This document shows, one piece after another, positions 5,932 to 45,564 of a stretch of 64,000 nucleotides of DNA; positions within the stretch are counted from its first letter, which is position 1, and each line of letters opens with the position of its first letter. This stretch comes from an uncultured Coriobacteriaceae bacterium (lineage in GTDB: Bacteria; Actinomycetota; Coriobacteriia; Coriobacteriales; Eggerthellaceae): NCBI GenBank assembly GCA_902768975.1, contig CACXMZ010000003.1:54941-118940 (forward strand). Direction: 5' to 3'. The notes below the pieces were generated by a model that saw only the letters and a program-made list of their open reading frames with translations, was not told where the DNA came from and ran no database searches. The position numbers were made by a program, and so were the translations under genes.

Positions 5932-5950
5932 AGCCGCATGACACTCCAGG

Positions 5951-5985: not shown

Positions 5986-6020
5986 GTTCAAACTATTCAT
6001 GATTAGTAAAAGGAAAGAAG

Positions 6021-6491: not shown

Positions 6492-6495
6492 GTTT

Positions 6496-6521: not shown

Positions 6522-6532
6522 TAGGAGTAGCC

Positions 6533-8065
6533 ATGACTGAAGAACAAGTTGAAGCAACGCAAGCGCAGGAAACAAGCGCGCAGGCGCCAGAAATCGAAGA
6601 CGATCCGCGTGAAGTGCGCTTGGCAAAGCGTGCGGCCCTTATTGAAGCGGGTGAAAACCCCTACGGGCATGCCTTCCAGTATTCGCACCATGTGGCACAG
6701 TTGCAGGAGCTCTACAAGGATGTGCCTGAAGGCGAAATTACCGAAGATGCGGTTGCTATTGCGGGGCGCATTATGGCCATCCGCGACCAGGGCAAAATTT
6801 GCTTTGTAGTGCTGCGCGAATCGGGCGCCGACATTCAGCTGTTCTGCCGCGTGAATAACTTGGGCGACGAAGCCTTTGCGGCCCTGAAGGACCTCGACGT
6901 CGGCGACTGGATTTCTGCTGAAGGCAAGATCATGCGCACGAAGCGTGGGGAACTTTCCGTGATGGTGGAACGCTTCGAGCTGCTTTCGAAGTCACTGCGC
7001 CCCCTGCCTGAAAAGTTCCATGGTCTGGCCGACAAGGAAACGCGTTATCGTCAGCGCTACGTGGACTTGATTGCCAACCCCGAAGTGCGCGACGTCTTCG
7101 AAAAGCGCTTCAAGATTATGCGAGCTATTCGCAGTTACATGGAAGACGAACAGGGCTATTACGAGGTTGAAACACCGTTCTTGCACAACATTATGGGCGG
7201 CGCCAACGCCAAGCCCTTCATTACGCATTTCAATGCCCTCGACAAGGACTTTTACCTGCGTATTGCCACCGAACTGCCCCTGAAGCGCTTGCTCGTGGGT
7301 GGTTTCGAAAAGGTATATGAAATGGGCCGTATCTTCCGCAACGAAGGCATGGACCAAACGCACAACCCTGAATTCACGACCATCGAAGCCTACCAGGCCT
7401 TCGGCGACTTGAATACCATGATGGACCTGACGCGTGGCATGGTGCAGGCGGCAGCTATAGCGGCCTGTGGCACACTGCAGGTGGAATACCAGGGGCAGAC
7501 CATCGACCTTTCGGGCGACTGGGAAGTACGCACCATGTGCGACCTGGCCACCGAAGCGGTGGGCGAACCTATTAACACGGATCGGAGCCTGGAAGACCTG
7601 CGTGCTATTGCACAGCGCTTGGGTATTAAGGTGGAAGAGAAGTGGGGCACGGGCAAGCTCATCTCCGAAATTTTCGAAGAAGCCTGCGAAGAAAAGCTCG
7701 TGCAGCCCATTTTTGTGACGGAGCACCCGCTTGAAGTAAGCCCCTTGGCCAAGAAGTTGCCGGGCAACCCACAGCTGACAGAGCGCTTCGAGCTGTTTAT
7801 CTGTGGGCACGAGTATGCGAATGCATTCAACGAACTGAACGACCCAGTGGACCAGGCCGAGCGCTTCCATGCGCAGGTAGCTGCCAAGGACTACGACGAC
7901 GAAGCCATGGGCTACGACGCCGACTATATCCGCGCGCTTGAGTATGGCATGCCACCCGCCGGTGGTATGGGCTTAGGTATAGACCGCTTGGTCATGCTGC
8001 TTACCGACAGTGCGTCCATCCGCGACGTTCTTCTATATCCAGCTATGAAACCAGAGGCCGAATAG
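6533..8065 (+). CDS. lysS: Lysine--tRNA ligase (class II)
   Basis: The full-length class II LysRS pattern is present (RYRQRYVDLI, FRNEGMDQTHNPEFT, GGMGLGIDRLVMLLT). Confidence 0.95.
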   Translation: MTEEQVEATQAQETSAQAPEIEDDPREVRLAKRAALIEAGENPYGHAFQYSHHVAQLQELYKDVPEGEITEDAVAIAGRIMAIRDQGKICFVVLRESGADIQLFCRVNNLGDEAFAALKDLDVGDWISAEGKIMRTKRGELSVMVERFELLSKSLRPLPEKFHGLADKETRYRQRYVDLIANPEVRDVFEKRFKIMRAIRSYMEDEQGYYEVETPFLHNIMGGANAKPFITHFNALDKDFYLRIATELPLKRLLVGGFEKVYEMGRIFRNEGMDQTHNPEFTTIEAYQAFGDLNTMMDLTRGMVQAAAIAACGTLQVEYQGQTIDLSGDWEVRTMCDLATEAVGEPINTDRSLEDLRAIAQRLGIKVEEKWGTGKLISEIFEEACEEKLVQPIFVTEHPLEVSPLAKKLPGNPQLTERFELFICGHEYANAFNELNDPVDQAERFHAQVAAKDYDDEAMGYDADYIRALEYGMPPAGGMGLGIDRLVMLLTDSASIRDVLLYPAMKPEAE

Positions 8066-8145
8066 CGCGCTTGCCCTGGCGCATAACGCACTTGTTTTGC
8101 GCTGTCACGTAGCGAAGTACGCTCGGCGCAAAGGCGTGCGTACTT

Positions 8146-9483
8146 TTAGAGCGTGCGCCACGTTGCGAGAGATTCCAGCCCGTCTTCCACTTCGGACTCA
8201 GGGGTGTCGGAAAGGGGAAGGGTGCCCAGGCGCAAGCCAGCCTCGTCCTTGACGAGGATAAAGCCACCAATACCGCTCGTAGGCTGGTAGGCGCGTGCCA
8301 TACCGCCGTCGATGCAGATGAGCTTGCCACCGCACTTCACGGGGTCTTCACCGTCCTTCACCTTTACAGGCACGTGGCCACACACCACGCGACTTGTTTC
8401 GGGGTCCATGCCGAAGTCTTCGAAAATAGCTGCCGCGGTTTCGGGGTTTTCCAGCAGCTGATAGAAAGGGTTCTTAATTTCGGTGCGCAGCTTCTTGTCT
8501 TCCAACTGGTAGAGTTCAAAGGTCGCCATCTTGCTCTTGGCAAACAGGGGCGATGCCACGCCCAACCACAGGTACCACAGCATGTCGGCACCCTTCTTTT
8601 GCGCTTCGGGGTCGCTGGCGGTGAAGGCATCGCGTACGGCGGCGTCTACCGCGTCGAAGAGGGCGCGCCCGCCAAGCGGCTTGCCAAAAACACCCGTCTG
8701 CATAATAAGGCCGTCGGCTGTCATGGGCACGCAGGCATGGAAGAGCAGGATGTCGTCAACCTGTTTGTACAGACTGCCGCGCTCAATGAGGACCTTCATA
8801 TGCTGTTGCAGTTTTTCACAGCTGCGGAAGGCCTGCTGCAAGTATTCCAGCACGACGGCTTCGCCACCAGTGAAGGCGTAAGGGTCGGCGGGGTTGATGG
8901 TGGGGAAGACCTTGTCCTTCAGTTCAAAGACCATGTCGTTTAAACGAATGGTGCCGTCTTGGTAATTGATTTTGTCGAGCAGGTCGCGTGCAACGAGGCC
9001 GAAGTTCGGGTTTTCCTGGATAAGAATGTGTTCTGCCTTGAACTGGATATATGCCATGGCTTTCTGGATTTTGATGGTGGCATCCAGGTCTTCGGGGCTT
9101 AAGTCGGGCTTGCCCTTCAAGCCAAAGGCTACACAGGGGTCATCCGCGTAGGTTTCAAGAGCAAAGGCACGCAGGGGCCCAAGGTCTATGCCGTAGGTTT
9201 CTTCCAAAACAGACAGGTTGCCATAGCGCGCACAAATGCGCACCGCATGTGCCACGCTGCCTGGCTGCCCCAGGGCCGCGCCCATCCAAAGCACGTCATG
9301 GTTGCCCCACTGGATGTCCAAGTTGGGCCATGCAGCGAGCGCGTCCATGACCTTGTCGGGTTCAGGCCCGCGGTCGTAGATGTCGCCCACCATATGTACG
9401 TGCGTCCCTTCGGGTGTGTTACGCAGGATGCGCGAAAAGGTCTCGTAATTACCGTGGATGTCGGAAACAAACAGTTCAGTCAT
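8146..9483 (-). CDS. fbp: Fructose-1,6-bisphosphatase class III, compact 445-aa form
   Basis: Metallophosphoesterase motifs SDIHGNYE, VGDIYDRGPEPD and IQWGNHDVLWMGA are present, as is the C-terminal GHVPVK...ICIDGG...Y pattern of Firmicute-type Fbp. Compared with my recollection of B. subtilis Fbp, the N-terminal roughly 60 aa and an internal insertion are absent. Confidence 0.75.
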   Translation of the reverse strand: MTELFVSDIHGNYETFSRILRNTPEGTHVHMVGDIYDRGPEPDKVMDALAAWPNLDIQWGNHDVLWMGAALGQPGSVAHAVRICARYGNLSVLEETYGIDLGPLRAFALETYADDPCVAFGLKGKPDLSPEDLDATIKIQKAMAYIQFKAEHILIQENPNFGLVARDLLDKINYQDGTIRLNDMVFELKDKVFPTINPADPYAFTGGEAVVLEYLQQAFRSCEKLQQHMKVLIERGSLYKQVDDILLFHACVPMTADGLIMQTGVFGKPLGGRALFDAVDAAVRDAFTASDPEAQKKGADMLWYLWLGVASPLFAKSKMATFELYQLEDKKLRTEIKNPFYQLLENPETAAAIFEDFGMDPETSRVVCGHVPVKVKDGEDPVKCGGKLICIDGGMARAYQPTSGIGGFILVKDEAGLRLGTLPLSDTPESEVEDGLESLATWRTL

Positions 9484-11426: not shown

Positions 11427-11453
11427 TTAGCACTCGTGGCTAAAGAGTGCTAA
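11427..11453. promoter_or_regulatory. Perfect CIRCE (HrcA operator) inverted repeat upstream of clpC
   Basis: TTAGCACTC-GTGGCTAAA-GAGTGCTAA matches the consensus TTAGCACTC-N9-GAGTGCTAA at 18/18 positions. It ends 73 nt before the clpC ATG. Confidence 0.8.
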
Positions 11454-11526: not shown

Positions 11527-14088
11527 ATGTCATTTGATAAGTTTACCGACAAAGCACGAAAAGTCCTGGTCATCGCCCAGGATGAGGCGCGTAATTTGAA
11601 GCAGCCCTATGTGGGAACCGAGCATATTCTGCTTGCACTTATTAAGGAAGGCGACGGTTTGGCTGCACAGGCCTTAGAACGCCTGCAAGTGAATTATGAC
11701 GACGTAGTTAAAACCATTCAGGAAACCGTACAGATCGACCCTGAAGCCGACGTTTCGGGCCACCTTGGCTTTACGCCACGTGTGAAGCGCGTGCTGGAAA
11801 ACAGCCTGCGTGAAGCCATGCAAATGGGGCAGAGCTATATTTCAACCGAGCATCTGCTACTGGGTATTGTCCGCGAAAACGACGGCACGGCTATCGAAGT
11901 TTTGAGCAAGCTAGGTACTTCGGGCGACGCTGTGCGTTCGGCCCTCAACGACCTGGTGGGGCAGTCGCCCGTTATGGCTGGCCAACGTGGTTTTGACGCG
12001 CCCATGCAGGGTACAAATATGCTCGATGAATACGGCACCGAGTTGACCAAGAAGGCCCTCGACGGCAAGCTAGACCCCGTCATTGGGCGTGCCGGTGAAA
12101 TCGAGCGCATGATGCAGGTGCTTTGCCGCCGCCGTAAGAACAATCCGCTCATCATTGGCGAACCGGGTGTGGGCAAGACCGCCGTGGTGGAAGGTCTGGC
12201 GCAGCTTATCGCGTCCAACCAGGTGCCCGACATTTTGCGCGGCCGCCGCATTTTCACACTCGACGTGTCTGGCCTGGTGGCGGGCAGCAAGTACCGCGGT
12301 GAATTCGAAGATCGCTTGAAGAAGTGCATTAAGGAAGTCATCGATGCGGGCGACATCATTCTGTTCATCGACGAACTCCACACCGTTATTGGTGCGGGTT
12401 CGGCCGAAGGTTCTATCGACGCGGCTGCCATTTTGAAGCCGCCGCTGTCCCGTGGTGAAATCCAGATTATTGGTGCTACCACGCTCGATGAATATCGCAA
12501 GCATATCGAAAAGGACGCTGCTCTCGAGCGTCGCTTCCAGCCTATTACCATTGGCGAGCCGAACGAAGAGCAGTCGATTCGCATCATGGAAGGTCTGCGC
12601 GAACGTTACGCCACCCACCACCACGTGGAATTCACCGACGAAGCGCTGGCTGCAGCCGTGCAGCTTTCCGACCGCTACATCCAAGATCGCTTCCTGCCCG
12701 ACAAGGCCATTGACGTGCTTGACGAAGCGGGCGCGCGCATGCGCATTCGCAACATGACACTGCCGCCTGAACTTTCGGGTATCGACGAAAAATTGCGTGA
12801 CGTGCGCATGAAGAAAGAAGCAGCTATTGCCGGCCAGGACTTCGAAGAGGCGGCCAAGCTGCGCGACGAAGAAACCAAGCTGCGTGAAGAACGCGCGGAA
12901 GCTGAAAAGAAGTGGGAAGAAGAATCTTCCAAGGACGTCCATAAAGTAAGTGCCGAAGACATTGCCGACGTTATTTCTATGACCACGGGTGTGCCCGTGT
13001 CTGACCTTACCGAAGCGGAAACGGAAAAGCTCCTGCGTATGGAAAAGGTTCTGCACGACCGCGTCATCGGGCAGGACGAAGCGGTGACGGCCGTTTCCAA
13101 GGCTATCCGTCGCAGCCGCTCCGGACTGAAAGACCCCAAGCGTCCCGCGGGTTCGTTTATTTTCCTGGGCCCTTCGGGCGTGGGTAAAACCGAACTTTCG
13201 AAGGCGCTTGCAGAATTCCTGTTCAACAGCGAAGACGCCCTGCTTTCCTTCGACATGAGCGAATACATGGAAAAGCACACGGTGTCGCGCCTTATTGGTT
13301 CGCCCCCGGGCTATGTGGGTTATGACGAAGGTGGCCAGCTGACCAAGGCCGTGCGCCAGCGCCCCTATTCCGTGGTGCTCTTCGACGAAATCGAAAAGGC
13401 TCACCCCGACGTGTTCAATATCTTGCTCCAGATTTTGGAGGAAGGTCGCCTGACCGACGGCCAGGGTCGCAGCGTGGACTTCCGCAATACGGTCATTATC
13501 ATGACATCCAACGTGGGCGCGCGCGACATTGCCCAGAGTGCCCCCATCGGTTTTGGCACCGACAACGACGGCCTGTCCGACAAGGAAATCAAGAGTCGCG
13601 TGATGAGCGAACTGAAGAAGCTCTTCCGTCCTGAATTCTTGAACCGCGTGGACGAAGTTATCGTGTTCAAGAGCCTGACCAAGGAAGAAATTGGCGAAAT
13701 TGTCCAGCTGATGGTGTCTGACTTGCGCGACCGTCTGATCGCCATGAATATGACGATTAACGTGAGCGAAGCCGCGAGCGAATACATTGCCAGTGAAGGC
13801 ACCGACACCACCTTTGGTGCACGCCCCCTGCGCCGTGCTATTCAGCGCCTGCTGGAAGACCCCATTTCCGAACAGGTCCTGGAAGGCAAGTGGACCAGTG
13901 GTAGCGTAATCGACGTGGACTTCGACGGCGAAGAGCTTACCTTCAAGAAAGGTACCGGCTCAATCCCCGAGCCGCGCAAGCGCGACACTATCGCCCAGGA
14001 GGCCGAATTGCTGTTGAAGGGTTATGACTTCAACAACACGGGTGCTCACCTGGGTGGGCCGGTTCAGTCAGACGGCGCCGCCGACTAA
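11527..14088 (+). CDS. clpC: ATP-dependent Clp protease ATP-binding subunit ClpC
   Basis: Two Clp_N repeats and two AAA+ modules (GEPGVGKTA; GPSGVGKTE) are present. A UVR-like middle domain (AGQDFEEAAKLRDEE) also fits. Confidence 0.95.
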   Translation: MSFDKFTDKARKVLVIAQDEARNLKQPYVGTEHILLALIKEGDGLAAQALERLQVNYDDVVKTIQETVQIDPEADVSGHLGFTPRVKRVLENSLREAMQMGQSYISTEHLLLGIVRENDGTAIEVLSKLGTSGDAVRSALNDLVGQSPVMAGQRGFDAPMQGTNMLDEYGTELTKKALDGKLDPVIGRAGEIERMMQVLCRRRKNNPLIIGEPGVGKTAVVEGLAQLIASNQVPDILRGRRIFTLDVSGLVAGSKYRGEFEDRLKKCIKEVIDAGDIILFIDELHTVIGAGSAEGSIDAAAILKPPLSRGEIQIIGATTLDEYRKHIEKDAALERRFQPITIGEPNEEQSIRIMEGLRERYATHHHVEFTDEALAAAVQLSDRYIQDRFLPDKAIDVLDEAGARMRIRNMTLPPELSGIDEKLRDVRMKKEAAIAGQDFEEAAKLRDEETKLREERAEAEKKWEEESSKDVHKVSAEDIADVISMTTGVPVSDLTEAETEKLLRMEKVLHDRVIGQDEAVTAVSKAIRRSRSGLKDPKRPAGSFIFLGPSGVGKTELSKALAEFLFNSEDALLSFDMSEYMEKHTVSRLIGSPPGYVGYDEGGQLTKAVRQRPYSVVLFDEIEKAHPDVFNILLQILEEGRLTDGQGRSVDFRNTVIIMTSNVGARDIAQSAPIGFGTDNDGLSDKEIKSRVMSELKKLFRPEFLNRVDEVIVFKSLTKEEIGEIVQLMVSDLRDRLIAMNMTINVSEAASEYIASEGTDTTFGARPLRRAIQRLLEDPISEQVLEGKWTSGSVIDVDFDGEELTFKKGTGSIPEPRKRDTIAQEAELLLKGYDFNNTGAHLGGPVQSDGAAD

Positions 14089-29561: not shown

Positions 29562-30353
29562 TTACAGGAGGGCGAGGATGGCGGACTTGGCTTCCAGGAA
29601 TTCGGGAGTCAGGGAGTAGTCGTGGACTGGTATGCCGTTGGATCTTGTGTAGTCTTCGGAAGTAGTTTCGCTTGGATGCTGGGGTATTATTTCGCCCGCA
29701 ATCCTGCTGTAGACGCCGTGCACTTCGCTTTTCCCGAGCACATAAATGCGGTCGGCAAGAAGGGTGGCTTCGTCGGGGTCGTGCGTAATCATAAGCGTTG
29801 AAAGCCCCAGTTCAGCAACCATTCTTTTGAACCAGGTACGGAGGCTCGTGCGGGTGATAGCGTCAAGTGCGCTGAAGGGTTCGTCGAGCAGCACCACGCT
29901 ATTACCCTGCAGGTAGGTGCGCGCGAAGGCCACGCGCTGGCGCATGCCGCCCGAAAGCTGCGCAGGCCACGCATCGGCAACCGAAGCAAGGCCCAAGTGA
30001 TCGAGCAAGGCAAGCGCTTGGTCGCGCGCTTCACTCTTTGCGGTACCGGCGAGCACAAGGGGAAGGGCGGCGTTGTCGACTACCCGCAAGTTGGGAAGAA
30101 GCAGGTCCTTCTGAAGCATATAGCTAATGTGACCAGGCTTACCCGTTATGTCTGCACCGCGCAGAAGCACCTGGCCTGCCCGGGGGGCTAGCAAGCCAGC
30201 AAGGGCATGTAAAATCGTAGTTTTGCCCATGCCGCTTTTGCCCACCAGGCAGACCAGTTCGCCTTCGCGCACTTCAAGGCTAAGCCCGTCGACAATAAAG
30301 TCGTCTTCGTGCCATGCAAGCGTAAGGTTTTGTGCTTCCAGAATGACAGACAT
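29562..30353 (-). CDS. ABC transporter ATP-binding protein (NitT/TauT family; ThiZ-like)
   Basis: Walker A GKSGMGKTT, signature LSGGMRQRVAFAR and Walker B LLDEPFSALD are present. The start at 30353 lies 1 nt after the stop of the upstream gene. The longer ORF to 30446 overlaps that gene and is unlikely. Confidence 0.85.
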   Translation of the reverse strand: MSVILEAQNLTLAWHEDDFIVDGLSLEVREGELVCLVGKSGMGKTTILHALAGLLAPRAGQVLLRGADITGKPGHISYMLQKDLLLPNLRVVDNAALPLVLAGTAKSEARDQALALLDHLGLASVADAWPAQLSGGMRQRVAFARTYLQGNSVVLLDEPFSALDAITRTSLRTWFKRMVAELGLSTLMITHDPDEATLLADRIYVLGKSEVHGVYSRIAGEIIPQHPSETTSEDYTRSNGIPVHDYSLTPEFLEAKSAILALL

Positions 30354-30354
30354 C

Positions 30355-32142
30355 TTAGTGTTCCAGGTACTCCATAGTGAAGCCAGCCTTGGGGTCGAAA
30401 GGCTTTTCAGATAGCTGGTAGTCGTTAATCCACTGATAGAAGCCACTCCAGCGCTCTTCGTCGATTACGCCCCAGCTGCTGGCATCGGCAATATATTGCG
30501 GGCTGATAATGGCCTGGGCTTCCTGAATCAAAGCAGGGTCCAGTTCGGGCACAGCCTTGCACAGCAGATCGCCCGCTTCCTTGGGGTATTCAGCGGCATA
30601 TTCGTAGCCGCGCTTTGCTGCACGCAGGAAGGCCTTCACGAGTTCGGGGTTTTCGGCGGCCCAGGTGTCGTTAACCGCAATGACGGGAGTGTAGAAGTCA
30701 AATACGGGGCTCATGTCGCCAAAGGCAAAATAATTCACGGGGTAGTTCTGCAAATTGGCATTGGCAACCGCCCACCATTCATACACCCAAACGCAGTCGT
30801 AAAGGTCGGCCTGCAGGCCCATAACGTCGTCGTCCACTTCGTAGGGTACGAGTTCAACGTCGTCAAAAGATGCGCCGTCGTCTTCCACCAGATGCTTGAT
30901 AGTAGCCTGCTCAACAGGAAGATTCCAGGTAGCATAACGCTTGCCAGCCATTTTGCCCGGGCTGGTAATGCCGTCTTCAGCGCGGCTCATGATGCCACTC
31001 GTGTTGTGCTGCACCACGGCAGCCACCGCAGTGTAGGGCATGGGTTCGGCGGCGCCAAGGCTGTTGGCGATGTAGTCCTGGTAGGTCATGCCCATGTTGG
31101 CACCACCAGAACCTATTAAAGCGTCGCTGCCGTCGGCGGGGCAGGGCACCAGTTCAACTTCGATGCCCTCTTCCAAAAACCAGCCGTTTTCAATGGCGGC
31201 ATAGATGCCGGTATGGTTTACGTTGGGGGAATAGTCAAGCACGAAGCTCACCTTGGCGGGTGCTTCATTCACCATGCCTGGTTTGTCGGTTGGTTGGCAG
31301 GCGCTTAAGCCCAGCACGCCCGACAAAGCCAAAACGGCCGCAGTCATAAGAGCAATTCCGTTGTTGCGTTTCTTCTTCATGTTTTTCCTTTCCGCAGCCT
31401 TCCACGGCATGCTTATTTTTTCGAGCACTCCCACGAGCCACATAAGGGCAAGCGAAAGCAAGCTAATAACCACAATCGACGCGAACATTTTGTCGTAGCT
31501 AAAGGACTTGCGTACACGCGTCATGTACACACCCAGGCCCGAAAACCCGCCAAGCCATTCAGCAATGACGGCCGCCACAATGGCATAAGTCGCGCTAATT
31601 TTGAGCCCCGCGAAGAATTGGTCACCCGCTGCTGGCAGTTTCACATAGCGGAAGATCTGCCAGTCGTTGGCACCCATGGTATGCATGAGGTCAATCTCGT
31701 CGGGGTCGACGCTGCGGAAGCCCGAAATAAGCGAAACGGCAATGGGGAAGAAGGTTGTAAGTACGATAAGCACGACCTTCGGAAGAATGCCGTAACCAAA
31801 CCACAGGACGAGCAGTGGTGCGATGGCAATGGTGGGTACCGTTTGCGAAACGGTCAGCAGTGGCTGGAAGGCAAGGTAGAGTATTTCGATGCGGTCCATG
31901 GCCACCGCGATGGCAAAACCAAGTATTACGCCAACGCTCAGACCAATGGCAGCTTCCAAAAGCGTCGTGCCAGAATGCTTGGCAAGCAATGCTGCGTCGC
32001 CCACGAGTGCGGCAATCACCTGGGTGGGGGCGGGCAGCATGTAGGAAGGCACGAGCCCCGTGCGGCATACCACTTCCCAGGTGCATAGCAATATAAGCAC
32101 CGCAGCGCTTGGCACCAACCATGTTTTCGTAGATGAGTTCAT
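30355..32142 (-). CDS. Fused ABC permease (ThiX-like, aa 1-250) and NMT1/THI5-like substrate-binding lipoprotein (ThiY-like, aa 255-595)
   Basis: The N-terminal half is a NitT/TauT-type permease. At codon 255 there is an in-frame MKKKRNNGIALMTAAVLALSGVLGLSAC, a complete lipoprotein signal with lipobox, preceded by GGAAAGGAAAA. The C-terminal half resembles NMT1/THI5-type binding proteins. A TPP riboswitch lies upstream. Confidence 0.8.
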   Translation of the reverse strand: MNSSTKTWLVPSAAVLILLCTWEVVCRTGLVPSYMLPAPTQVIAALVGDAALLAKHSGTTLLEAAIGLSVGVILGFAIAVAMDRIEILYLAFQPLLTVSQTVPTIAIAPLLVLWFGYGILPKVVLIVLTTFFPIAVSLISGFRSVDPDEIDLMHTMGANDWQIFRYVKLPAAGDQFFAGLKISATYAIVAAVIAEWLGGFSGLGVYMTRVRKSFSYDKMFASIVVISLLSLALMWLVGVLEKISMPWKAAERKNMKKKRNNGIALMTAAVLALSGVLGLSACQPTDKPGMVNEAPAKVSFVLDYSPNVNHTGIYAAIENGWFLEEGIEVELVPCPADGSDALIGSGGANMGMTYQDYIANSLGAAEPMPYTAVAAVVQHNTSGIMSRAEDGITSPGKMAGKRYATWNLPVEQATIKHLVEDDGASFDDVELVPYEVDDDVMGLQADLYDCVWVYEWWAVANANLQNYPVNYFAFGDMSPVFDFYTPVIAVNDTWAAENPELVKAFLRAAKRGYEYAAEYPKEAGDLLCKAVPELDPALIQEAQAIISPQYIADASSWGVIDEERWSGFYQWINDYQLSEKPFDPKAGFTMEYLEH

Positions 32143-32147
32143 ACGTA

Positions 32148-32246
32148 CTTCCTACGCCGGCATTATCCGGATCAGGTTCTTCGGGTCGTGGCATTTGCGG
32201 TGCCACCTCTCAGCCAGGCCAATTCCTAGCTCCCCCTGGGGTAGAC
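32148..32246 (-). promoter_or_regulatory. TPP (THI-box) riboswitch
   Basis: The minus strand reads ...GGGGAGCTAGGAATTGGCCTGGCTGAGAGGTGGCACCGCAAATGCCACGACCCGAAGAACCTGATCCGGATAATGCCGGCGTAGGAAG. This contains the conserved CUGAGA, ACCC and GAACCUGAUCCGGAUAAUGCCGGCGUAGGAA blocks. It lies immediately 5' of the ThiX/Y-like gene. Confidence 0.85.
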
Positions 32247-33563: not shown

Positions 33564-34115
33564 ATGCCAACTATGCACTGGGACCTTACGCAGTGGGCCA
33601 CGCGCGCCTACCTCTTCGACGAAGTTTGCGCAGGCGAAGATGGGCTGGCGGAAAGCATTCGTGCGCAGGCTGCAGAAGCCGGTGTGCCGCAGGAACACCA
33701 TCATCACCTGTCTGACATTTTGAATACTATCGACAACTTACAGGGCGTGCCCGAACAGGTTCAGGACGACATGCGTGCCATTTACCAGGTGCTCGCCGAA
33801 GCAGAAGCGCAGGTGCACGGCAGCGAAGTGGATCATATGCATTTCCATGAAGTGGGCGAGGGAAGCCATATTCAAAGCGTACTGGAGATTTGCCTTGCCA
33901 TTCGCTCCCTGCAGCCGCAGCGTATCACGTCAACGCACGTGCAGGTAGGAAGTGGCCAAGTGCAATGCGCCCATGGTCTTATGGACATTCCTGCACCAGC
34001 CACGGCAGCTATCCTTGCGCGTGGTGTTCCTATTTTCGAGCCGCGCCTTGAAGGGGAGCGTTGCACGCCCACGAGTGCTGCGGTCATCTTTCACTTTGTG
34101 GATGAATTCATCTAG
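33564..34115 (+). CDS. larC: LarC N-terminal-domain-like protein, truncated and diverged (no LarC2/CTP-binding domain)
   Basis: A His tract (EHHHH) and VDHMHFHEVGEG...VGSGQVQCAHGLMDIPAPATAAIL...GERCTPTSAAV parallel the LarC N-terminal domain. The usual N-terminal FSGISGDM motif is degraded (VCAGEDGL), and the ORF stops at 183 aa with a convergent gene next. Confidence 0.6.
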   Translation: MPTMHWDLTQWATRAYLFDEVCAGEDGLAESIRAQAAEAGVPQEHHHHLSDILNTIDNLQGVPEQVQDDMRAIYQVLAEAEAQVHGSEVDHMHFHEVGEGSHIQSVLEICLAIRSLQPQRITSTHVQVGSGQVQCAHGLMDIPAPATAAILARGVPIFEPRLEGERCTPTSAAVIFHFVDEFI

Positions 34116-34187: not shown

Positions 34188-36746
34188 CTAGGCAAACGCT
34201 GCGCCCGAATCTTGCTTCTGGCGGCGGAAGAACACCAAACGCTCTACCATGCCACAGGCAACCAAGGCGACGGTAAGCGGTAGCACGAAGGGCGCAAAGG
34301 GGTTGTCCGCGAGGACTTCCTTTATCTCTTCCTGTTGCGGAATAACAGAAAGCTTGCGCCAGCGCTGACCAAGTTGGCCAGTCGTTTTCTCTTCTTGAGC
34401 AGCCACTTCTTCATTGATCTTTTCGGTAACTTCTGGGTCAACCTGGATATTGAGCCCAGGTGCTTCAGGGGCAGGCGTCGCTTCGTCTGCCTTGGTAATG
34501 CTGTCGATGGGAACCAGCTGGCTTGGCTGAGTGGGCGTGTTCTGCGGTGCCGGCGTCGGGCTTGAGGGCGGCTGCTGGCTGGGGGGCTGGGTGTTTTCTT
34601 GCGAAGGGGCAGCACCAGATTCTGAACTGGAAGAATCGCCTGCTTCTGAACTGCCACCTTGTTCACTTGGGCCTGGTTCGCCAGAGCCGCTTGAACTTGA
34701 ATCGCCAGAACTGCTCGAGCTTGAGTCACCAGAACCTTCGCCGCCTGGTACGCCCGAACTAGAGCTTCCTTCGCTGGGTTCAAATTCAGACGGGTCCGCG
34801 TCGGAAAGCGCTACCAGCATTTGAATATTAGTGCACGCGACATTCGGGTCACAATCGCATTCGTCACCATCACAGGTATTCGAAGAACCTGCACCGTTTG
34901 TGCGCACCTTTACGCGATACCAGTTGCCCATGGTGCTTTCATCCGTGGGAACCTTGTAAGAGCTGTCGTGTGCGTCGGCAATGGTTGTCCAGGTCCTACC
35001 GTAGTCGGGGGAAACATACCATTCGTAAGTCACGGCCGACTCCTGCTTATTGAGCAGCTGGACCGTGAACATGGTGTCGGTACCTTCCCAGGTCGGTTCA
35101 TATTCAAGCACGGCGAGGAATTCGTCTTCGCCTGCTGCTCGAATAGTGACAGGCTCTGAAGTAAAGGTGTCAACTATGTTGCCGTCGTCGTCTTTAAAAC
35201 TGCTATCCAGAATACGGACGTTTACGCGGTACTGCCATCCGATGGTCTTTTCAGTTGTAGGAACTTGCATGACCTGGATGTTTTCGTTTGGCGTATATTC
35301 CCAGCTAGCGCCCCCGTCAGTCGAAACTTCCCATTCGTAGTAGAAGGTGATATGCCCCACATCGGCAAGGATGGGGGTAAGGAATGCATTGAGAGGTGGA
35401 TCTTTTAAGGGCGCGGGGATGTAGCTGATTCGCACAAGGCCTGAACCCGTGTCGTCGGAGCTGGGCTCCACCCATTGGGCATACAGAGTAAGACTCAAAG
35501 GCCCTGTGGCCGCTTCGCTTGAAGATGCTTCACCAGCGTGGGAGGAAGCTTCTCCAGGACTGCTGGATTCTGCAGAACTTGGAGCCATGCTTTCGGTCGG
35601 ATTGGTTCCTTCGCCGTCGTTTTCGCTACCTTCACCTTCGCTTGGCGTTTCGTCGCCAGTAGACTCTGCTGCCGCGGCGGCTGCAGCTTGAACGTCTGCA
35701 ATCGTTGCAGCATTCACACTTGCACCTGGCGCAAAGGAACTCCCTTTGCCGTCGGCTTGGGTGTTCCAGCCCCCAAAGGTTTTGCCTTCAGGCGCCTCAA
35801 CTCCTTCAGGAATATTTGCGACAACCGCGTTGCCGTTTTCGTCGCTATTGGTAGGTGCAAGACTTCCTTCCACCCCGTTAAGATCATAGGTGATGATGAC
35901 TGCTGCTACGGGAGCCGCTGGGTCCGAAGAACTTGAACTAGAACTTGAATCTTCCGATTCGGAGTCTGTTGAAACCACGTCAATCTTGTTAGAAACATGA
36001 GCGGAGCCATAGACACCCTTGTCGGAGTAGGCACTCACGTGGATGCTGAGCCCTGCCTTAATGGTAAGTACACCCGTTTTTTCATCGATATGTGCCTGCT
36101 CCTTGGGGACGGCATGTTCTTCAGTGCTGCCTTCAGTAGTGGTGTAGATCTTCCACTTAATATCTTCGTCGGAAAGTTTGCCTTCCGTAAGCGTGCTCAA
36201 GTTCGTTTTTGGCGTAAGGGTTACTTCCTTTGTTTCAGCCGAATTTGAGTCGGGCACATAGACAATGCGAAGTCTAAATTCATACTTCGCTTCTTTGTCC
36301 TTGTCGTTCTTTATTGTGAGAACTTCGTTGTTGCCGAAGGTTTCTTTTTCGTTCTTATCAGGGTCCCAGGTACCTTCAGCCTTGAGGATTTCAATGCTTT
36401 TGATATAGGCATAAGATGCCGGCGGTGTGTCGGGAACGTCTTCGCTGCTGCTGGGGTCAGGGTTTGGATTGGGGTTTTCGCCAGGGTTGTCGCCCGGGTC
36501 GGGGTCTGTACCTGGGCCAGGGTCGTCTGGGGCAGGGTCGCCTGGAGCGGGGTCATCGGGAGGTGGGGTGTCGCTCGAAGATGCCGCGCCCCCTTCGCCT
36601 TCTGGCGGGGTGCCCGTGTCGCCCGCTGCATTTTCATCTGTGGGTTCAGCACCGTAGGCAAAACTGTATTCCAGATGCCAGGTGAACATAAAGGTCAGCG
36701 AAAAGACCAGCAGAATTCGGAGTATTTTCGAAGCAACCCTGCTCAT
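34188..36746 (-). CDS. Large secreted, membrane-anchored multi-domain surface protein (852 aa)
   Basis: The protein starts with a signal peptide and a Pro/Asp-rich spacer, then an Ig-like segment (IDEKTGVLTIKAGLSIHVSA). A Listeria-Bacteroides-type repeat follows (VIITYDLNG...GKTFGGWNT...LTLYAQW) and is interrupted by low complexity. Two paralogous modules carry Asp-box motifs (STDGGASW, SPDYGRTW). After Ser/Gly- and Pro/Gln-rich tracts comes a C-terminal TM plus basic tail (FFRRQKQ). No LPXTG is present. Confidence 0.8.
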   Translation of the reverse strand: MSRVASKILRILLVFSLTFMFTWHLEYSFAYGAEPTDENAAGDTGTPPEGEGGAASSSDTPPPDDPAPGDPAPDDPGPGTDPDPGDNPGENPNPNPDPSSSEDVPDTPPASYAYIKSIEILKAEGTWDPDKNEKETFGNNEVLTIKNDKDKEAKYEFRLRIVYVPDSNSAETKEVTLTPKTNLSTLTEGKLSDEDIKWKIYTTTEGSTEEHAVPKEQAHIDEKTGVLTIKAGLSIHVSAYSDKGVYGSAHVSNKIDVVSTDSESEDSSSSSSSSDPAAPVAAVIITYDLNGVEGSLAPTNSDENGNAVVANIPEGVEAPEGKTFGGWNTQADGKGSSFAPGASVNAATIADVQAAAAAAAESTGDETPSEGEGSENDGEGTNPTESMAPSSAESSSPGEASSHAGEASSSEAATGPLSLTLYAQWVEPSSDDTGSGLVRISYIPAPLKDPPLNAFLTPILADVGHITFYYEWEVSTDGGASWEYTPNENIQVMQVPTTEKTIGWQYRVNVRILDSSFKDDDGNIVDTFTSEPVTIRAAGEDEFLAVLEYEPTWEGTDTMFTVQLLNKQESAVTYEWYVSPDYGRTWTTIADAHDSSYKVPTDESTMGNWYRVKVRTNGAGSSNTCDGDECDCDPNVACTNIQMLVALSDADPSEFEPSEGSSSSGVPGGEGSGDSSSSSSGDSSSSGSGEPGPSEQGGSSEAGDSSSSESGAAPSQENTQPPSQQPPSSPTPAPQNTPTQPSQLVPIDSITKADEATPAPEAPGLNIQVDPEVTEKINEEVAAQEEKTTGQLGQRWRKLSVIPQQEEIKEVLADNPFAPFVLPLTVALVACGMVERLVFFRRQKQDSGAAFA

Positions 36747-36764
36747 AAAACTTGCGTGCGTTTC

Positions 36765-37067
36765 CTATTCTTCAACCAGGTAGTATTGCCCAGTTTCGGG
36801 ATCCATATAAACGCGACCCATTTCAACATAGTTCGAGTCGCTTGCACCTTCTGTCTGGGCGCTTTCTTCGAGGCTTTCAATTTCTTCGCCCAGCTCAACC
36901 TGCGAAAAAGCGCCAAGGTCAACGCTCCAGGCAACAATAAGAGCTGTCATAAGACCGCAGGCAAACACGAGCATAACGTCGCCGATGCCGCTCATGGACG
37001 TCATGGGGTCAACATCTTCTACGGCCGTGTTTCCTCGGAAGGATGAACGTGAATCGTAGTAGCTCAT
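36765..37067 (-). CDS. Small single-pass membrane protein with ExbD/TolR-like TM signature (possibly the family often annotated DUF2149)
   Basis: In the 100-aa protein, ...MSGIGDVMLVFACGLMTALIV reproduces the (I/V)DVMLVLL motif, with its conserved Asp, found in ExbD/TolR TM helices. The start lies 9 nt after the stop of the MotA/ExbB-like gene, with a GGGGGAA RBS. Confidence 0.6.
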   Translation of the reverse strand: MSYYDSRSSFRGNTAVEDVDPMTSMSGIGDVMLVFACGLMTALIVAWSVDLGAFSQVELGEEIESLEESAQTEGASDSNYVEMGRVYMDPETGQYYLVEE

Positions 37068-37076
37068 AGTTCCCCC

Positions 37077-38201
37077 TTACTGGCCCTGGTTGGCAGGAGG
37101 CTTAGCCCCTGGACTAGCTGGTGCGTTTGTGGTGGCCGCCCCTGGTGTTGTAGCTGGTGAAGCTGAAGGGGCGGCAGGTGAAGCCGTCGAAGGTGCGCTT
37201 GCAGGACTTTGGCCTGGAGTAGCGGTGCCTGCTTGTGTACCCGTTGGGGTCAGGCGCATGTAGCCTGGCGTGGGCGCACCAACGCGTACATCGCTCGAAG
37301 AAGCAACGCGGGGCGTTGGTGAAGTGGTTGGTTGCGCCGCTGGTTGGGCAACCGGCGGCGTTGCCGGCTGTGCCCCTGGGCGTGTTGCCTGCTGAACTAC
37401 TGGCTGCACTGTTAGCCGTGCGGCTGCAGAAGTTTCTTGCTGCGCTGCCGCGCCTGTTGCAGCTTCGGTATGGGCAGGTTCACTCTTGCCCTTCTTCAGC
37501 CCCTGTTCAAACATGAAGGTGTAGTTAGAAGGCTCTTTGGCCACAATACTACCCGCAGCGCGCATGTCTTCAATCTTCTGCAAAAGGGTAGCCATGCCAC
37601 TGTCAAGCGCAGAAAGATAGTCGTTATACCAAACACTGCGAATCTTACCCACCGCCAAGCAAACCGCGGCAACGGCCAGGCCGGCAACGGTGGTGTCGAA
37701 GGCGATAAGCAGTGAACTCGAAAGAATGGTGGGGTCTGCCTGACCAAGTGCCGCAACGCCTGGGCCGAGTGGAATAAGGGTACCCATCAGGCCGAGCATG
37801 GGGCTAATTTTTGCTGCCATGTTGTTGCGGCCCGTAATGCGGTTGTAGTGCGTTTCTTCGGTGTTGACCGTGCGGCGGATAAGCGCGAGCAAGGCGTCGC
37901 CTGGCAAAGTGCGATAGTCATACACGGTTAGCAGAGCGCTCTTTTGGCGATTGAGCAGCTGCGACGACCGAATAACTTCAGGAATGGTATTTTCTTCAGC
38001 TGCCATAAGGGCTGCCAGGAATTCTGGCATGGCCACTTTGAAGTTACGCCGTTCAGTAAAGTATTCCATAAGCACACTGCCAATACAGAACAGGGCATAG
38101 CCTGCGAACAGTAGCAACAGAATAATGTCGGGCACAAGTAAGGCCTGCGCCAGTGCATGAAGTACGTCTGTTAAGGAAGAAAAAGTTGAAAGAAAGTCCA
38201 T
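37077..38201 (-). CDS. MotA/TolQ/ExbB proton-channel family protein with about 150-aa Pro/Ala/Thr-rich C-terminal tail
   Basis: There are three TM segments. The channel signature ISPMLGLMGTLIPLG...LLIAFDTTVAGLAVAAVCLAVGKIR resembles ExbB/TolQ (LGLLGTV...AL.TTA.GL.VAIP). The tail is low complexity (AQPATPPVAQPAAQPTTSPTP...). Confidence 0.75.
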   Translation of the reverse strand: MDFLSTFSSLTDVLHALAQALLVPDIILLLLFAGYALFCIGSVLMEYFTERRNFKVAMPEFLAALMAAEENTIPEVIRSSQLLNRQKSALLTVYDYRTLPGDALLALIRRTVNTEETHYNRITGRNNMAAKISPMLGLMGTLIPLGPGVAALGQADPTILSSSLLIAFDTTVAGLAVAAVCLAVGKIRSVWYNDYLSALDSGMATLLQKIEDMRAAGSIVAKEPSNYTFMFEQGLKKGKSEPAHTEAATGAAAQQETSAAARLTVQPVVQQATRPGAQPATPPVAQPAAQPTTSPTPRVASSSDVRVGAPTPGYMRLTPTGTQAGTATPGQSPASAPSTASPAAPSASPATTPGAATTNAPASPGAKPPANQGQ

Positions 38202-38448
38202 TACGTTCCCCTCGGTTATTTACATTTCCTTTATTGTACCGCTCGGGGCTTATAAGTGTCTTATTTGTGGCGTAGTCTTCACGTTCTTGTACCAGCTTGT
38301 TACTTTTTGTTTTCGCAGTAAACGAAAAGTCACTACATGTCGAACAAAAAATCATTACAAAATGAAAAAAGCCTTGTTAAATGTGACATTGTTGCATTCT
38401 TTGGGGCGTGCGACGTGCGATAATAAGCACAAAGAGAAAGGAAGAACC

Positions 38449-42807: not shown

Positions 42808-45564
42808 TTATTCGTCATTCAGCTTTCTGCGTCGTGCAGCTACGAGCGCGCAGACCAAGGCTACCATGGCTAAGCCTGCAAGGGCTCCCATTTCTTGCGG
42901 GCCGATGGCATCCGCCGTCCCAGCAGTCGTCTTGCTTGGCGTTGCTTTCTTAATCTTGGGAATGGGCCGCGTTTCCTTATGGCTGGGGTCGTGTTCGCAC
43001 ACGCGGGTTTCTTCACCTTCGGCCGTCGTGGTCGGCTCCTTCGTTACCTTCCAGGGGCCCCACTTGTGGCCATGTGCCTTAATGACCGTGTCGCCGAGGT
43101 CGATTTCCTGGGCCGCCTTTTCGTCGGCGAAGTATATACCGCATATGCTGCACTGCCAGTATTCGGTATGGCCGTCTTCGGTGCAAGTTTCCGGAACAGC
43201 TTCCGTGTGCACAAGCTGGTGCAGATGCGCGGGGTAGGCACTGTCTTTGGCCAGCATCCAAGCCAGGTAGTCTTCGTTGTAGTGGGCCGAAGAAACCTTG
43301 TTTGCCTGCGCAATGAGGGTGGACGCCGTGCGCATGTTGTTTTCCGTGCTGAAGGGCGCGCCTTCGGTGTAGAGGACGAGGTACATGAGCAAGCGCCTCA
43401 GCTGGGTCACATGGTCGCGCATGGTGGTGAAGTGGTTCTGAATGTCCTGGTAGTAGGGGCTTCCGGCGTCATAGCGCCCTGAATTCAGAATGGTCGTTTC
43501 AGCTTGGTTGAGGACCGCTGTCATCCCTAAATCAGCTGCATCATTGATGTCTGTAGCTCCTTCGGGTGCCAAAAGCGTAGTGAGAACACCAATTATTTCG
43601 CTGGCAGCATGCGTTCCGCCATCGGCCAAAGCGTCAACGATAGGCTTATATTTTTTGTCGGAAAGAAGAGAGCCAATTAAACCATAGATGGTCACGCGCA
43701 TCTCATGGGCTTTTTCGGGTGTTCCAGGTTGTTCTTTGTCGCCATCACCATAGATACAGGGTTTTAGTAGTTGGTACAGAGCCACGCGTGCCGTCTTAAG
43801 GCCTTCTTCAGTTGAAGGATCTATGCCACCGCCAGAAAGATTGGCGAGCGCTTTGGCAAGAGCATCGTAGACCATGCCCACTGCTTTTGAGCTAAAGGAA
43901 ACATCGACCGGAGAAGTGCCGTCGTACACCGGATTGCTGCCGTTACCAAGCCACTTCAATGCCAGGTAGATTGCGTCGTCCACCGTGGGTTTGGCTGGTG
44001 CTTTTTCTCCCGTGATGTATTCGAGGGCGTCTATCAGTGCTGCAGCAGCGGCCTCGTTTTCGTCAGTGATGCCCCGTTCTTCTGCCAGGCGTTCCGCCGC
44101 GTAGGCCAGGTAGCTAAACACTACAGCCTTAATGGTGTTGGCACGAGCACCTTCGGGTTGTTCGGGCGCCCAGACATCAAGCGTGGCTAACAACTTTTCA
44201 TTCATGCCAAAGACACCCGCAAGTGCTGTGAGCGTGTCTTGCCAGCCCCCATTGGCGTATTCCGTGTGCGTAGGGGCATGGTAAATGAGTGCTTTAACGC
44301 GCTGCGCAAAAAACTGCGCCTGTGTGATGCCGCTTGCGGGGGGATTGGGGTCGTCAATAAACGAAAGGCTTTGAATGTCGAAGGTCTTGTAGCCAAAGAT
44401 GGTTTCATCGCCTGGCTTTATAGGAGGGTCGCTACTTTCGTTGCCCACATAAGCGATATAGGCAAAGGGGTCCAGGTCCGCGAGCGCTGCCAGGTAAGCT
44501 TCGCGGCTGCCATCGGTGAGTTCGAAGTAATTGCCAAAATGGGTAAAGCCCCAGCTCGATGGGGGGAGAAGCGTAATAAGGTCGAAATCGGGGACGGTGT
44601 TATGAATGCCGGCAAAGGGGCCTTCATGAGGGCTGATGCCTTCACCTGCGTCAGCACCCGTGTATGGCGCGGCGTCGCCCGGCGTGTCATTTTCGTAGCG
44701 CGCGTCTTGGCTGGTGCGGGGGCCGCCTTCCACGGAAAGCAGATCAGCCTTGGTGGCGCCAGATTCCAGCACGTTGGTCGGGGTGGCAAAGGTGTAAGCG
44801 TAGACGTTTTCGGGTGCCACGGTAACGCCGTTCAGGTAATGGCTGGCTCCACCGGCTGCGAAGAAGGCACCAACAAGGTTTGCCAGCGCGCCGCCGCGGC
44901 TGTGCCCGCAGGTCCATACCTTTATGTCGCCAGCAATTCCATGCTCAGACACATACTGCTTCACAAAACGCAGGATTTCGTCGCGGCCAGCCTTGAAACC
45001 TTGGTGGATGCTGCCACTGCCTACGGTGAAGTTGCCATCCCATTCCTGCTTGTAGCCAGCACTGCGCGGAACAATAGCGAGCACGGTGTATTCTTCACCA
45101 GTTTTGGGGTCCTTGATAGTCTTGTGCCCCACCGCCACGCCAGTTGTGTTGGGCATATTTTCCAGGTTATATTCGGCGTTTACGGCCACGTCTTCAAAAG
45201 CAAGCGCTTCGAGGAAGGGAATAACATTCTTGCTGTTGTTGGTATTGTCGCGTTCGTCGGCTGCGGGGTAATAGCTGGTAGACGTTTCGCACGCGATGGC
45301 CGAAAGCGTAGCAAGATGCTGGTTGAAGGTGCTTGCCGGACCCATGAACCATTCGTCGTTATAGGCGAAGGTGTGGGTACGTTCAACGGAAGGCCCGCCA
45401 GGGGTAAAGCCTTCGTTGGAAACAAAGGTGTATTCACCTACGATGGTGGAGCAGTTGGTTTGCGGATTGGCTTCATGGGTCGCAAATGCTGCCGCCGGGA
45501 AAAGGCCAACAACGAGTACGAAAGCAATAAAAAGGTGCAGGCTGCGTTTAATAGTGTGTTTCAT
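42808..45564 (-). CDS. Large secreted class-3-lipase-domain (alpha/beta hydrolase) protein with Cys-rich module and C-terminal membrane anchor
   Basis: After the signal peptide comes the nucleophile elbow VWTCGHSRGGALANLVG (GHSxG). The C-terminal Cys/His-rich segment is CTEDGHTEYWQCSICG...GHKWG...RVCEHD. A TM plus RRRK tail ends the protein. Confidence 0.7.
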   Translation of the reverse strand: MKHTIKRSLHLFIAFVLVVGLFPAAAFATHEANPQTNCSTIVGEYTFVSNEGFTPGGPSVERTHTFAYNDEWFMGPASTFNQHLATLSAIACETSTSYYPAADERDNTNNSKNVIPFLEALAFEDVAVNAEYNLENMPNTTGVAVGHKTIKDPKTGEEYTVLAIVPRSAGYKQEWDGNFTVGSGSIHQGFKAGRDEILRFVKQYVSEHGIAGDIKVWTCGHSRGGALANLVGAFFAAGGASHYLNGVTVAPENVYAYTFATPTNVLESGATKADLLSVEGGPRTSQDARYENDTPGDAAPYTGADAGEGISPHEGPFAGIHNTVPDFDLITLLPPSSWGFTHFGNYFELTDGSREAYLAALADLDPFAYIAYVGNESSDPPIKPGDETIFGYKTFDIQSLSFIDDPNPPASGITQAQFFAQRVKALIYHAPTHTEYANGGWQDTLTALAGVFGMNEKLLATLDVWAPEQPEGARANTIKAVVFSYLAYAAERLAEERGITDENEAAAAALIDALEYITGEKAPAKPTVDDAIYLALKWLGNGSNPVYDGTSPVDVSFSSKAVGMVYDALAKALANLSGGGIDPSTEEGLKTARVALYQLLKPCIYGDGDKEQPGTPEKAHEMRVTIYGLIGSLLSDKKYKPIVDALADGGTHAASEIIGVLTTLLAPEGATDINDAADLGMTAVLNQAETTILNSGRYDAGSPYYQDIQNHFTTMRDHVTQLRRLLMYLVLYTEGAPFSTENNMRTASTLIAQANKVSSAHYNEDYLAWMLAKDSAYPAHLHQLVHTEAVPETCTEDGHTEYWQCSICGIYFADEKAAQEIDLGDTVIKAHGHKWGPWKVTKEPTTTAEGEETRVCEHDPSHKETRPIPKIKKATPSKTTAGTADAIGPQEMGALAGLAMVALVCALVAARRRKLNDE

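Follow-up and report, generated by a model that had tools for sequence, protein, structure and literature searches.

What would an ion channel of the ExbB/TolQ type do in a bacterium without an outer membrane, and why does its gene stand beside that of a large surface protein? The question arises from three minus-strand genes, here called A, B and C, in a 64,000-nucleotide stretch of DNA from an uncultured Coriobacteriaceae bacterium (contig CACXMZ010000003.1 of assembly GCA_902768975.1; the whole stretch is referred to below as the window). The organism is placed in the Eggerthellaceae, a family of the Actinomycetota in class Coriobacteriia, which is a Gram-positive monoderm lineage. For motors of the MotA/ExbB family, current accounts invoke flagella, gliding, phage defence or the energising of an outer membrane, and a conserved three-part unit in a monoderm fits none of these. 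Gene A (37077-38201, minus strand) encodes a 374-residue ExbB/TolQ-like channel protein; gene B (36765-37067, minus strand) encodes a 100-residue protein of the DUF2149 type; and gene C (34188-36746, minus strand) encodes an 852-residue secreted protein with a C-terminal membrane anchor. On balance, we lean towards reading A and B as an ion-driven motor that would form one membrane machine with C, a dedicated wall-spanning partner worked in the manner of TonB or TolA. The original prediction is partly supported, and its core, a channel pair functionally linked to a surface protein, is considerably strengthened by the comparison with relatives described below.

The open reading frames (ORFs) and their spacing are exactly as first described, with gaps of 9 nucleotides between A and B and 18 nucleotides between B and C. 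Purine-rich ribosome-binding sites can be read in the sequence before A (GAGGGG) and before B (GGGGGA). All three proteins have identical copies in public assemblies as well as many homologues, and A, B and C are therefore real genes. The named homologues of A come from Eggerthellaceae metagenome-assembled genomes (MAGs).

The channel subunit and its small partner

Protein A is ExbB/TolQ-like in both family and fold. Its core (residues 1-225; 37527..38201, minus strand) is a channel subunit with three transmembrane (TM) helices that matches Pfam MotA_ExbB (PF01618) at 35.2 bits, above the curated cut-off of 22.9, and the same family is the precomputed Pfam assignment for 119 of 120 homologues of A among the matches listed. 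A family profile built from 56 members matches the solved structures of MotA (7.8e-6), ExbB (2.5e-4) and PomA, laying residues 18-180 of A on ExbB 26-197 and aligning the TM2 and TM3 motifs with those of MotA. An AlphaFold2 model of residues 1-225, with a predicted local distance difference test (pLDDT) score of 84.6, has the ExbB-type fold (an N-terminal TM helix, a helical domain in the cytoplasm and a TM2-TM3 hairpin) and finds its best Protein Data Bank (PDB) matches by Foldseek in ExbB and TolQ (TM 0.59-0.69 over ~215 residues, full-length). The best 50 PDB matches are all ExbB, TolQ, PomA or MotA, with PomA and MotA scoring lower than ExbB and TolQ, and similarity to these two is weak in NCBIfam and PDB comparisons. 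The assignment to the MotA/TolQ/ExbB type made in the original prediction is thus confirmed by Pfam, by profile matches to the PDB and by structure. Across the 56 sequences, the conserved positions comprise an invariant E46 at the cytoplasmic end of TM1 (approximately residues 26-45), P134, G137, G140, T141, P144 and G146-G148 in TM2, and A167, F168, T170 and T171 in TM3. None of A, B, C or the Clostridial Y and Z proteins carries a curated NCBIfam name.

The core is followed by a low-complexity tail of 149 residues (226-374; 37080..37526, minus strand; Ala 21%, Pro 16%, Thr 14%). The size and the Pro/Ala/Thr-rich composition noted earlier for this tail are accurate, but the likeness to the TonB spacer that was proposed with them does not hold. 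The alignment with ExbB places the tail after the last cytoplasmic helix and, together with the positive-inside rule, predicts a cytoplasmic location. Among close homologues, its length and composition vary freely (Ala/Glu-, Ser/Arg- or Asp/Glu-rich); a long tail is found in Eggerthellaceae and some Clostridia, and most Clostridial homologues, at 209-245 residues, have none. A predicted cytoplasmic segment that varies in this way is therefore not a TonB-like spacer. Between the last helix and the hypervariable tail lies a short motif conserved in Eggerthellaceae homologues, EP(S/T)(N/D)YAF(M/L)(F/Y)E (residues 222-232; 37506-37538, minus strand).

Protein B is likely, by homology at the sequence level, to be a member of DUF2149 (PF09919, COG4744). 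Its own match covers profile positions 1-87 of 92 at 24.7 bits (E 3e-5), below the curated cut-off of 27.1, and a homologue in locus L048 (phmmer E 9.7e-17 to B) reaches 36.2 bits, above the cut-off. DUF2149 is also recorded for several neighbours. As described originally, B is a single-pass protein of 100 residues whose TM helix carries an aspartate within the sequence GDVMLV and is followed by an acidic ectodomain. This residue, Asp30 (codon 36978-36980, minus strand), is invariant in 53 of 53 B sequences from both phyla, and P21, M32, V34, A42, G84, D89 and G93 are invariant in the same set. The ectodomain has 53 residues, 14 of them Asp or Glu against a single Lys or Arg, and is variable apart from a conserved C-terminal motif, G-x-V-Y-x-D-P-x-T-G-x-Y-Y. 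This motif may form a small oligomerisation or strand-pairing hairpin. The corresponding C-terminus (36768-36815, minus strand; GxVYxDPxTGxYY(L/V)xE) weakly resembles the beta-hairpins of the T4 fibritin foldon and of a phage protein, at a non-significant E of ~0.1-0.84.

The further step of classing B with ExbD, TolR and MotB, which the original prediction took, finds no backing in sequence similarity. Neither ExbD nor MotB of Pfam matches B at E<=1, and the profile of 53 B sequences has no PDB match below E 0.1. In a direct hhalign comparison with E. coli ExbD, whose sequence was checked against PDB entry 6TYI, Asp30 falls on ExbD Asp25, but the alignment spans only 19 TM columns at a probability of 6.8% and is not significant. 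Domain searches found no folded periplasmic domain in B, whether the alpha-beta domain of ExbD/TolR or an OmpA-like peptidoglycan-binding domain; with only 53 acidic residues outside the membrane, B has neither. B was therefore rejected as a member of the ExbD/TolR/MotB family: it has a helix that is ExbD/MotB-like on paper, and by sequence it is no demonstrable member of those families. Profile searches that had been suggested as a check thus succeeded for A with MotA_ExbB, came close to the threshold for B with DUF2149, and failed for ExbD/TolR.

Linkage of the A-B pair to a tail-anchored surface protein

Protein C is, as first described, secreted and C-terminally anchored, with a signal-like helix at its N-terminus and a TM helix at its C-terminus. 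The signal-peptide-like segment (residues 1-32, ending FAYG/AEP; 36651..36746, minus strand) contains thirteen invariant positions in six sequences (K7, R10, V14, F15, L17, F19, T22, W23, H24, Y27, A30, Y31 and G32). This region is unusually conserved for full-length homologues that are only 30-70% identical overall, and the distant partners in L008 and L019 share ALVFLxxFW in their N-termini. The N-terminus of C may do more than serve as a cleaved signal peptide; it could, for instance, be a second membrane segment. The ectodomain modules (34887..36416, minus strand) comprise a beta-sandwich (residues 111-262), an InlB-B/Flg_new-like repeat (280-350) and two related beta-sandwich repeats (417-620); Pro/Asp-rich and Ser-rich linkers precede the first beta-sandwich, and the linkers between the modules are acidic or Ser-rich. 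Each of the two related repeats holds one S-x-D-x-G-x-x-W (Asp-box-like) motif, at residues 475 and 579. Of the modules named in the original prediction, the Asp-box motifs are present and the Ig-like modules are matched by generic Ig/FN3 tandems, while the Pfam matches to Flg_new (20.6 bits) and BNR both lie below the cut-off. Structure was of no help in assigning a function to C: AlphaFold2 gives pLDDT 60-87 for its domains and 52.7 overall, a poor model, and Foldseek returns generic Ig/FN3 tandem matches only.

Beyond the modules lies a spacer of ~140 residues (640-780; 34407..34829, minus strand) rich in Ser, Pro, Gly and Gln (Ser 27%, Pro 15%, Gly 12%), with pLDDT below 50 and a comparable region in homologues; it is a candidate wall-spanning segment. 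The anchor module (residues 781-852; 34191..34406, minus strand) consists of a juxtamembrane strand G-x-R-W-R-K-L-S-V, the sequence NPFAPF and a TM helix with the pattern G832-x3-R836-x3-F840-R841; the helix is followed by RRQ. No LPXTG motif occurs in C, as [LIV]P.[TSA]G has no match anywhere in the protein. Only five full-length homologues of C are found in 5.8 billion clusters, and the ectodomain is therefore regarded as fast-evolving.

To what extent is such a protein a regular companion of the channel pair? The comparative sample, drawn from species-representative genomes, consists of 80 loci with A homologues, most of them in rumen or gut MAGs. Both Coriobacteriia and Clostridia are represented, the latter by Mogibacterium, Anaerovoracaceae, Lentihominibacter, Acutalibacteraceae and others. 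B directly follows A in at least 57 loci. In Eggerthellaceae, the gene after B encodes a large C-like protein whatever the flanks: the trio lies between gatCAB and LarBC in the window, and with GlnA-III upstream and LeuA downstream in several other genomes. By phmmer and jackhmmer, only the last ~60 residues of C are conserved in all partners. In 57 of the 80 loci, a jackhmmer search with C-terminal tails picks out a single protein with this anchor module, always on the strand of A, and inspection adds eleven further partners that had been missed by the ORF picker or the threshold. A tail-anchored partner thus accompanies A-B in 68 of the ~72 loci with enough flanking sequence. It follows B in the Eggerthellaceae and lies 1-122 bp before A in Clostridia (Bacillota) and in Gordonibacter. 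The three-gene neighbourhood proposed originally accordingly persists in two phyla, in either of two gene orders and beside differing flanks, and in relatives the pair does not simply sit beside unrelated genes. Judged by the conditions for refutation that came with the original prediction, the idea stands.

The anchor has a recognisable signature, a TM helix with G-x3-[RK]-x3-[FY]-[RK]. With positions in 69 partners numbered from the first basic residue behind the helix, Gly stands at -4 in 47, Phe or Tyr at +4 in 47, and Arg or Lys at +5 in 38; G832 is the sole invariant column across 55 partners. A strict regular expression for the signature matches 29 of 57 partners as against 4 of 848 other ORFs, and in the window C is its only match. 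The two anchor subtypes are bridged by L032 and L051, loci that were recovered from both. The ectodomains attached to this anchor differ, with Big_2 in 37 partners, Flg_new in 8, and Oxidored_molyb-like, PASTA and Cna_B domains besides. Conservation of precisely the anchor is what one would expect if these proteins were physically coupled to a membrane motor.

The association also holds in the opposite direction. An exhaustive search of 1.84 billion representatives with the last 100 residues of C returns 58 clusters, nearly all of them at the extreme C-terminus of proteins of 600-1500 residues. Six anchor proteins were looked up in their genomes, and the five informative cases all have A-B immediately upstream. 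P0285/L088, a candidate for an anchor protein lacking A-B, was set aside as uninformative because its contig begins inside the partner gene. In some Eggerthellaceae, a single genome has two or three paralogous sets of A, B and partner (L009, L020 and L030 in CAMOUE01; L019 and L024 in CAMOTA01; L011 and L025 in JAFUCC01), some with FecCD, ABC and periplasmic-binding-protein genes and some without, an arrangement that recalls the multiple TonB/ExbBD sets of diderms. The system is present in at least one named strain, Gordonibacter sp. 28C (L031), where the partner occupies 5815-7986, A 7983-8807 and B 8811-9245, and experiments may therefore be feasible.

Importer genes in relatives and a possible mode of action

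What such a unit might do is best approached through its relatives. Clustering of neighbouring genes in the 80 loci brings out an importer of the metal-chelate type: Peripla_BP_2 binding proteins occur in 27 loci, ATP-binding cassette (ABC) ATPases in 25 and FecCD permeases in 23. A lipoprotein of ~165 residues with an Oxidored_molyb domain is found in 24 loci. A surface protein of ~1200 residues that combines Reg_prop, Oxidored_molyb and fn3 domains is encoded in 17, and 13 loci have the tungsten enzyme AFOR nearby. Importer genes are also present in the Coriobacteriia paralogues L020, L024 and L027. A molybdenum or tungsten cofactor (Moco/Tuco) riboswitch (RF01055) stands directly before the first cluster gene in three of 14 Clostridial loci scanned (L054, L039 and L043), the first gene extending beyond the fetched sequence in most of the others. 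The riboswitch sites score 45-70 bits against a gathering threshold of 36 and lie at 595-750 in L054, at 2806-2921 and 10577-10691 in L039, where the second copy precedes a large Oxidored_molyb protein, and at 1803-1934 in L043. The operons that they head encode Oxidored_molyb-like surface proteins, a FecCD/ABC/Peripla_BP_2 importer, the tail-anchored partner, A, B and the Oxidored_molyb lipoprotein. Riboswitches of this class are known to precede genes for molybdate transport, for Moco biosynthesis and for enzymes that depend on Moco (PMC2408646). No riboswitch was found in ten Coriobacteriia loci.

This context points to energised nutrient capture rather than to motility or secretion. The relatives suggest that the unit may supply an ABC importer by energised capture or release of a nutrient, which in some Clostridia is related to a Mo/W cofactor, and the riboswitch-led operons suggest an uptake system for Mo/W or a pterin cofactor that has so far gone unrecognised, and with it an unrecognised trace-metal or cofactor route in the gut. 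The function is not transferable to the subtype in the window, since that subtype has neither the riboswitch nor the importer genes.

A mechanism can be outlined on this basis. Firstly, A and B would assemble as an ion-driven motor of the MotA/ExbB type, presumably with a 5:2 stoichiometry. The C-terminal TM helix of C, with its G-x3-R-x3-F-R end, would then dock on this motor; TM1 of A is a possible dock, where Glu46 would lie at the same membrane depth as Arg836 of C, each at the cytoplasmic end of its helix, so that the two are a candidate contact. The Ser/Pro-rich spacer of C would cross the thick wall and leave the Ig/FN3-like modules exposed at the surface. Finally, ion flow through A/B would be turned into mechanical work on C, as ExbBD acts on TonB and TolQR on TolA. 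A more specific version, which we put forward only tentatively, is a Ton-like energy coupling adapted to monoderms, in which the motor, powered by the membrane potential, pulls or turns the anchor helix and thereby drives ligand capture or release, or a change in adhesin conformation, beyond the wall. In Clostridia, as part of riboswitch-controlled importer operons whose surface proteins have domains of the molybdopterin-binding type, it would serve the energised acquisition of Mo/W or of the pterin cofactor itself. If true, the same logic might explain the HmuUV proteins of Bacteroidota and the COG4744-TolQ pair of methanogens.

Several points weigh against the motor-and-partner reading. Contact among A, B and C is something that we infer, as are docking through the anchor, proton flow and force transduction. 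Statistically, B shows no relation to ExbD, TolR or MotB; it also lacks a folded ectodomain and should therefore not be assumed to behave as they do. The anchor is short and partly hydrophobic, so that the homology between the Eggerthellaceae and Mogibacterium anchors amounts to transitive matches within a small local database. No recognisable partner was found in L017, L022, L035 and L069 despite enough flanking sequence. Scans of the region for promoter and terminator patterns gave counts not above chance, and the case for co-transcription accordingly consists of spacing and conservation; a weak sigma-70-like promoter candidate, AAGACA-18-TACAAT (38233..38262, minus strand), lies ~30 nucleotides upstream of A. 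The operon in the window, moreover, offers adhesin-like modules only, no adjacent transporter genes and an ectodomain without a functional clue.

Among the alternatives, the one that survives best is that the end of C is a sorting signal, as in LPXTG, PEP-CTERM and PGF-CTERM proteins, and that A and B insert, release or position tail-anchored proteins instead of acting as a motor on mature C. The module of C has three parts (NPFAPF, the TM helix and RRQ), a layout typical of such C-terminal signals; each locus has one target beside the putative processing genes, and C, having no LPXTG, needs another route of anchoring. However, A and B come from a family of ion-channel motors and show no features of a protease or transpeptidase, and the extracellular motif differs between the subtypes. 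Conservation lies instead at the helix's cytoplasmic end, a pattern more in keeping with docking than with cleavage, and we consider sorting or biogenesis an unlikely explanation.

Signalling is a second alternative, in which C would sense wall damage, a ligand or a phage and gate A/B, and the tail of A would relay the signal inward, as proposed for ZorAB of the Zorya system. The long cytoplasmic tail in Eggerthellaceae and some Clostridia suits this idea, and in some Clostridial loci with a long A tail the partner has a longer cytoplasmic extension as well. The tail is nevertheless of low complexity, unconserved and absent from most Clostridial homologues, and the association with ABC importers points to uptake. 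Nor are there PADLOC matches or genes for ZorC/D-like or other effectors, and we think signalling quite improbable. A defence system was itself considered and rejected: PADLOC gives no match to ZorA or ZorB, and its sole match (E 0.04) is spurious and due to low complexity. Like A, ZorA belongs to the MotA family and has a long C-terminal extension in the cytoplasm, but in A this extension is a disordered, unconserved tail and not a long coiled coil, ZorC/D are missing, and the conserved partner is a surface protein.

It is just as improbable, in our view, that A and B form an independent ion channel or are the remnant of a Ton system, and that C is an ordinary adhesin co-transcribed with them by chance. 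A 2025 survey holds that Ton components in monoderms are probably non-functional (PMC12204202), and C evolves fast, with its five full-length homologues. Coincidence is nonetheless hard to reconcile with a linkage that persists across both phyla and both gene orders under changing flanks and with a common anchor signature, and the invariance of key residues in A and B speaks for selection. A stator for a flagellar or gliding motor, to which the weak similarity of A to PomA and MotA might point, is very improbable, as the annotated ORFs of the window include no flagellar genes, the fold of A is nearer to ExbB/TolQ, and B has no peptidoglycan-binding domain.

How does the favoured arrangement, a motor with a dedicated surface partner, compare with known systems? 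It shares with Ton and Tol a subunit of ExbB/TolQ fold and topology, a small single-pass protein with a buried Asp and, alongside them, an elongated envelope-spanning third protein that would dock by one TM helix; its relatives are likewise tied to chelate-type nutrient uptake. It differs in that there is no outer membrane, TonB-dependent receptor or Pal/TolB. C, in addition, would be anchored by its C-terminus after Sec export, with a helix orientation opposite to that of TonB and TolA and without TonB_C, and B is a DUF2149 protein with an ectodomain of just 53 residues rather than an ExbD or TolR. MotAB and PomAB offer the same superfamily for A and an Asp in a B-type helix, but a poorer structural match than ExbB/TolQ, an OmpA-like domain that B lacks, and a flagellar context that is missing here. 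GldLM, of gliding and type IX secretion in Bacteroidota, is comparable in concept, an ion-driven 5:2 motor there acting through a long protein that spans the envelope. In GldLM, however, the spanning protein is the B-type subunit itself, a role apparently taken here by a third protein; at E<=1 the only Pfam family that A matches is MotA_ExbB, and no GldL chain appears among the best 50 structural matches.

The closest parallels in composition are pairs in which MotA_ExbB is followed by DUF2149. HmuU and HmuV of the haem operon hmuYRSTUV in Bacteroidota are the same Pfam pair, with roles that are only proposed. DUF2149, as COG4744, has also been noted as TolQ-linked in methanogens, likewise in cells without an outer membrane. 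The hmu operon additionally encodes HmuR (a TonB-dependent receptor), HmuY (a hemophore) and HmuS (a CobN-like dechelatase), none of which is present beside the A-B-C operon or in the common Pfam-annotated neighbour clusters; CobN, HmuY and TonB-dependent transporters in particular are absent within 10 kb of the window operon. No tail-anchored partner has been described for HmuUV or for the methanogen pairs. A 2025 phylogeny of MotAB homologues places non-flagellar members, some of unknown function, in a 'generic ion transporter' clade and does not mention DUF2149. No description of the trio or of its anchor was found in the searchable literature, and no curated NCBIfam or PADLOC model covers the trio. 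The unit spans gut and rumen anaerobes of the Actinomycetota and Bacillota and brings in a new kind of partner, a tail-anchored protein that would span the wall. It makes testable the purpose of the many orphan MotA/ExbB-DUF2149 pairs, including HmuUV of abundant gut Bacteroidota and the pairs of methanogens.

Genomic surroundings in the window

The A-B-C unit is flanked by a divergent glutaredoxin-gatCAB block on one side and by a convergent LarB/LarC-like pair on the other. Of the Gram-positive hallmarks cited in the original prediction, gatCAB is confirmed by annotation and CIRCE (controlling inverted repeat of chaperone expression) is present as a perfect copy, but the T-box is not seen: the Rfam scan of the window gave only a tRNA and a thiamine pyrophosphate (TPP) riboswitch at the gathering level. 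The same scan placed no cobalamin riboswitch or other RNA element at the A-B-C operon. The absence of flagellar, TonB-dependent receptor and Tol-Pal genes also stands among the annotated ORFs of the window, which have no match to TonB_C or to a TonB-dependent transporter either. The other large ORFs are housekeeping genes, encoding ClpC-like, DnaE, PheT, ProS, LysS and FolC-like proteins, a Firmicute-type fructose-1,6-bisphosphatase and a SpoIIE-type phosphatase.

A second large secreted protein of 918 residues is encoded at 42808-45564 (minus strand); it has a weak Lipase_3 match and a C-terminal TM anchor preceded by a Cys-rich region. It does not carry the G-x3-R-x3-[FY]-R anchor signature and is therefore not a partner of the A-B pair. 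Beside LarB (AIRC) lies a Ni_insertion (LarC-like) ORF (33564-34115, plus strand) of 183 residues only; this is seemingly short for a complete LarC and may represent a split or truncated larC. The TPP riboswitch (32131-32246, minus strand; 59.9 bits) precedes two ORFs, one for a fused permease/substrate-binding protein (30355-32142) and one for an ABC ATPase (29562-30446), which together look like a thiamine-precursor importer. Finally, the CIRCE element (11427-11453, plus strand) reads TTAGCACTC-N9-GAGTGCTAA with 0 mismatches, where 0.02 such copies would be expected by chance, and is located 74 nucleotides upstream of a gene for a ClpC-type AAA+ protein (11527-14088).

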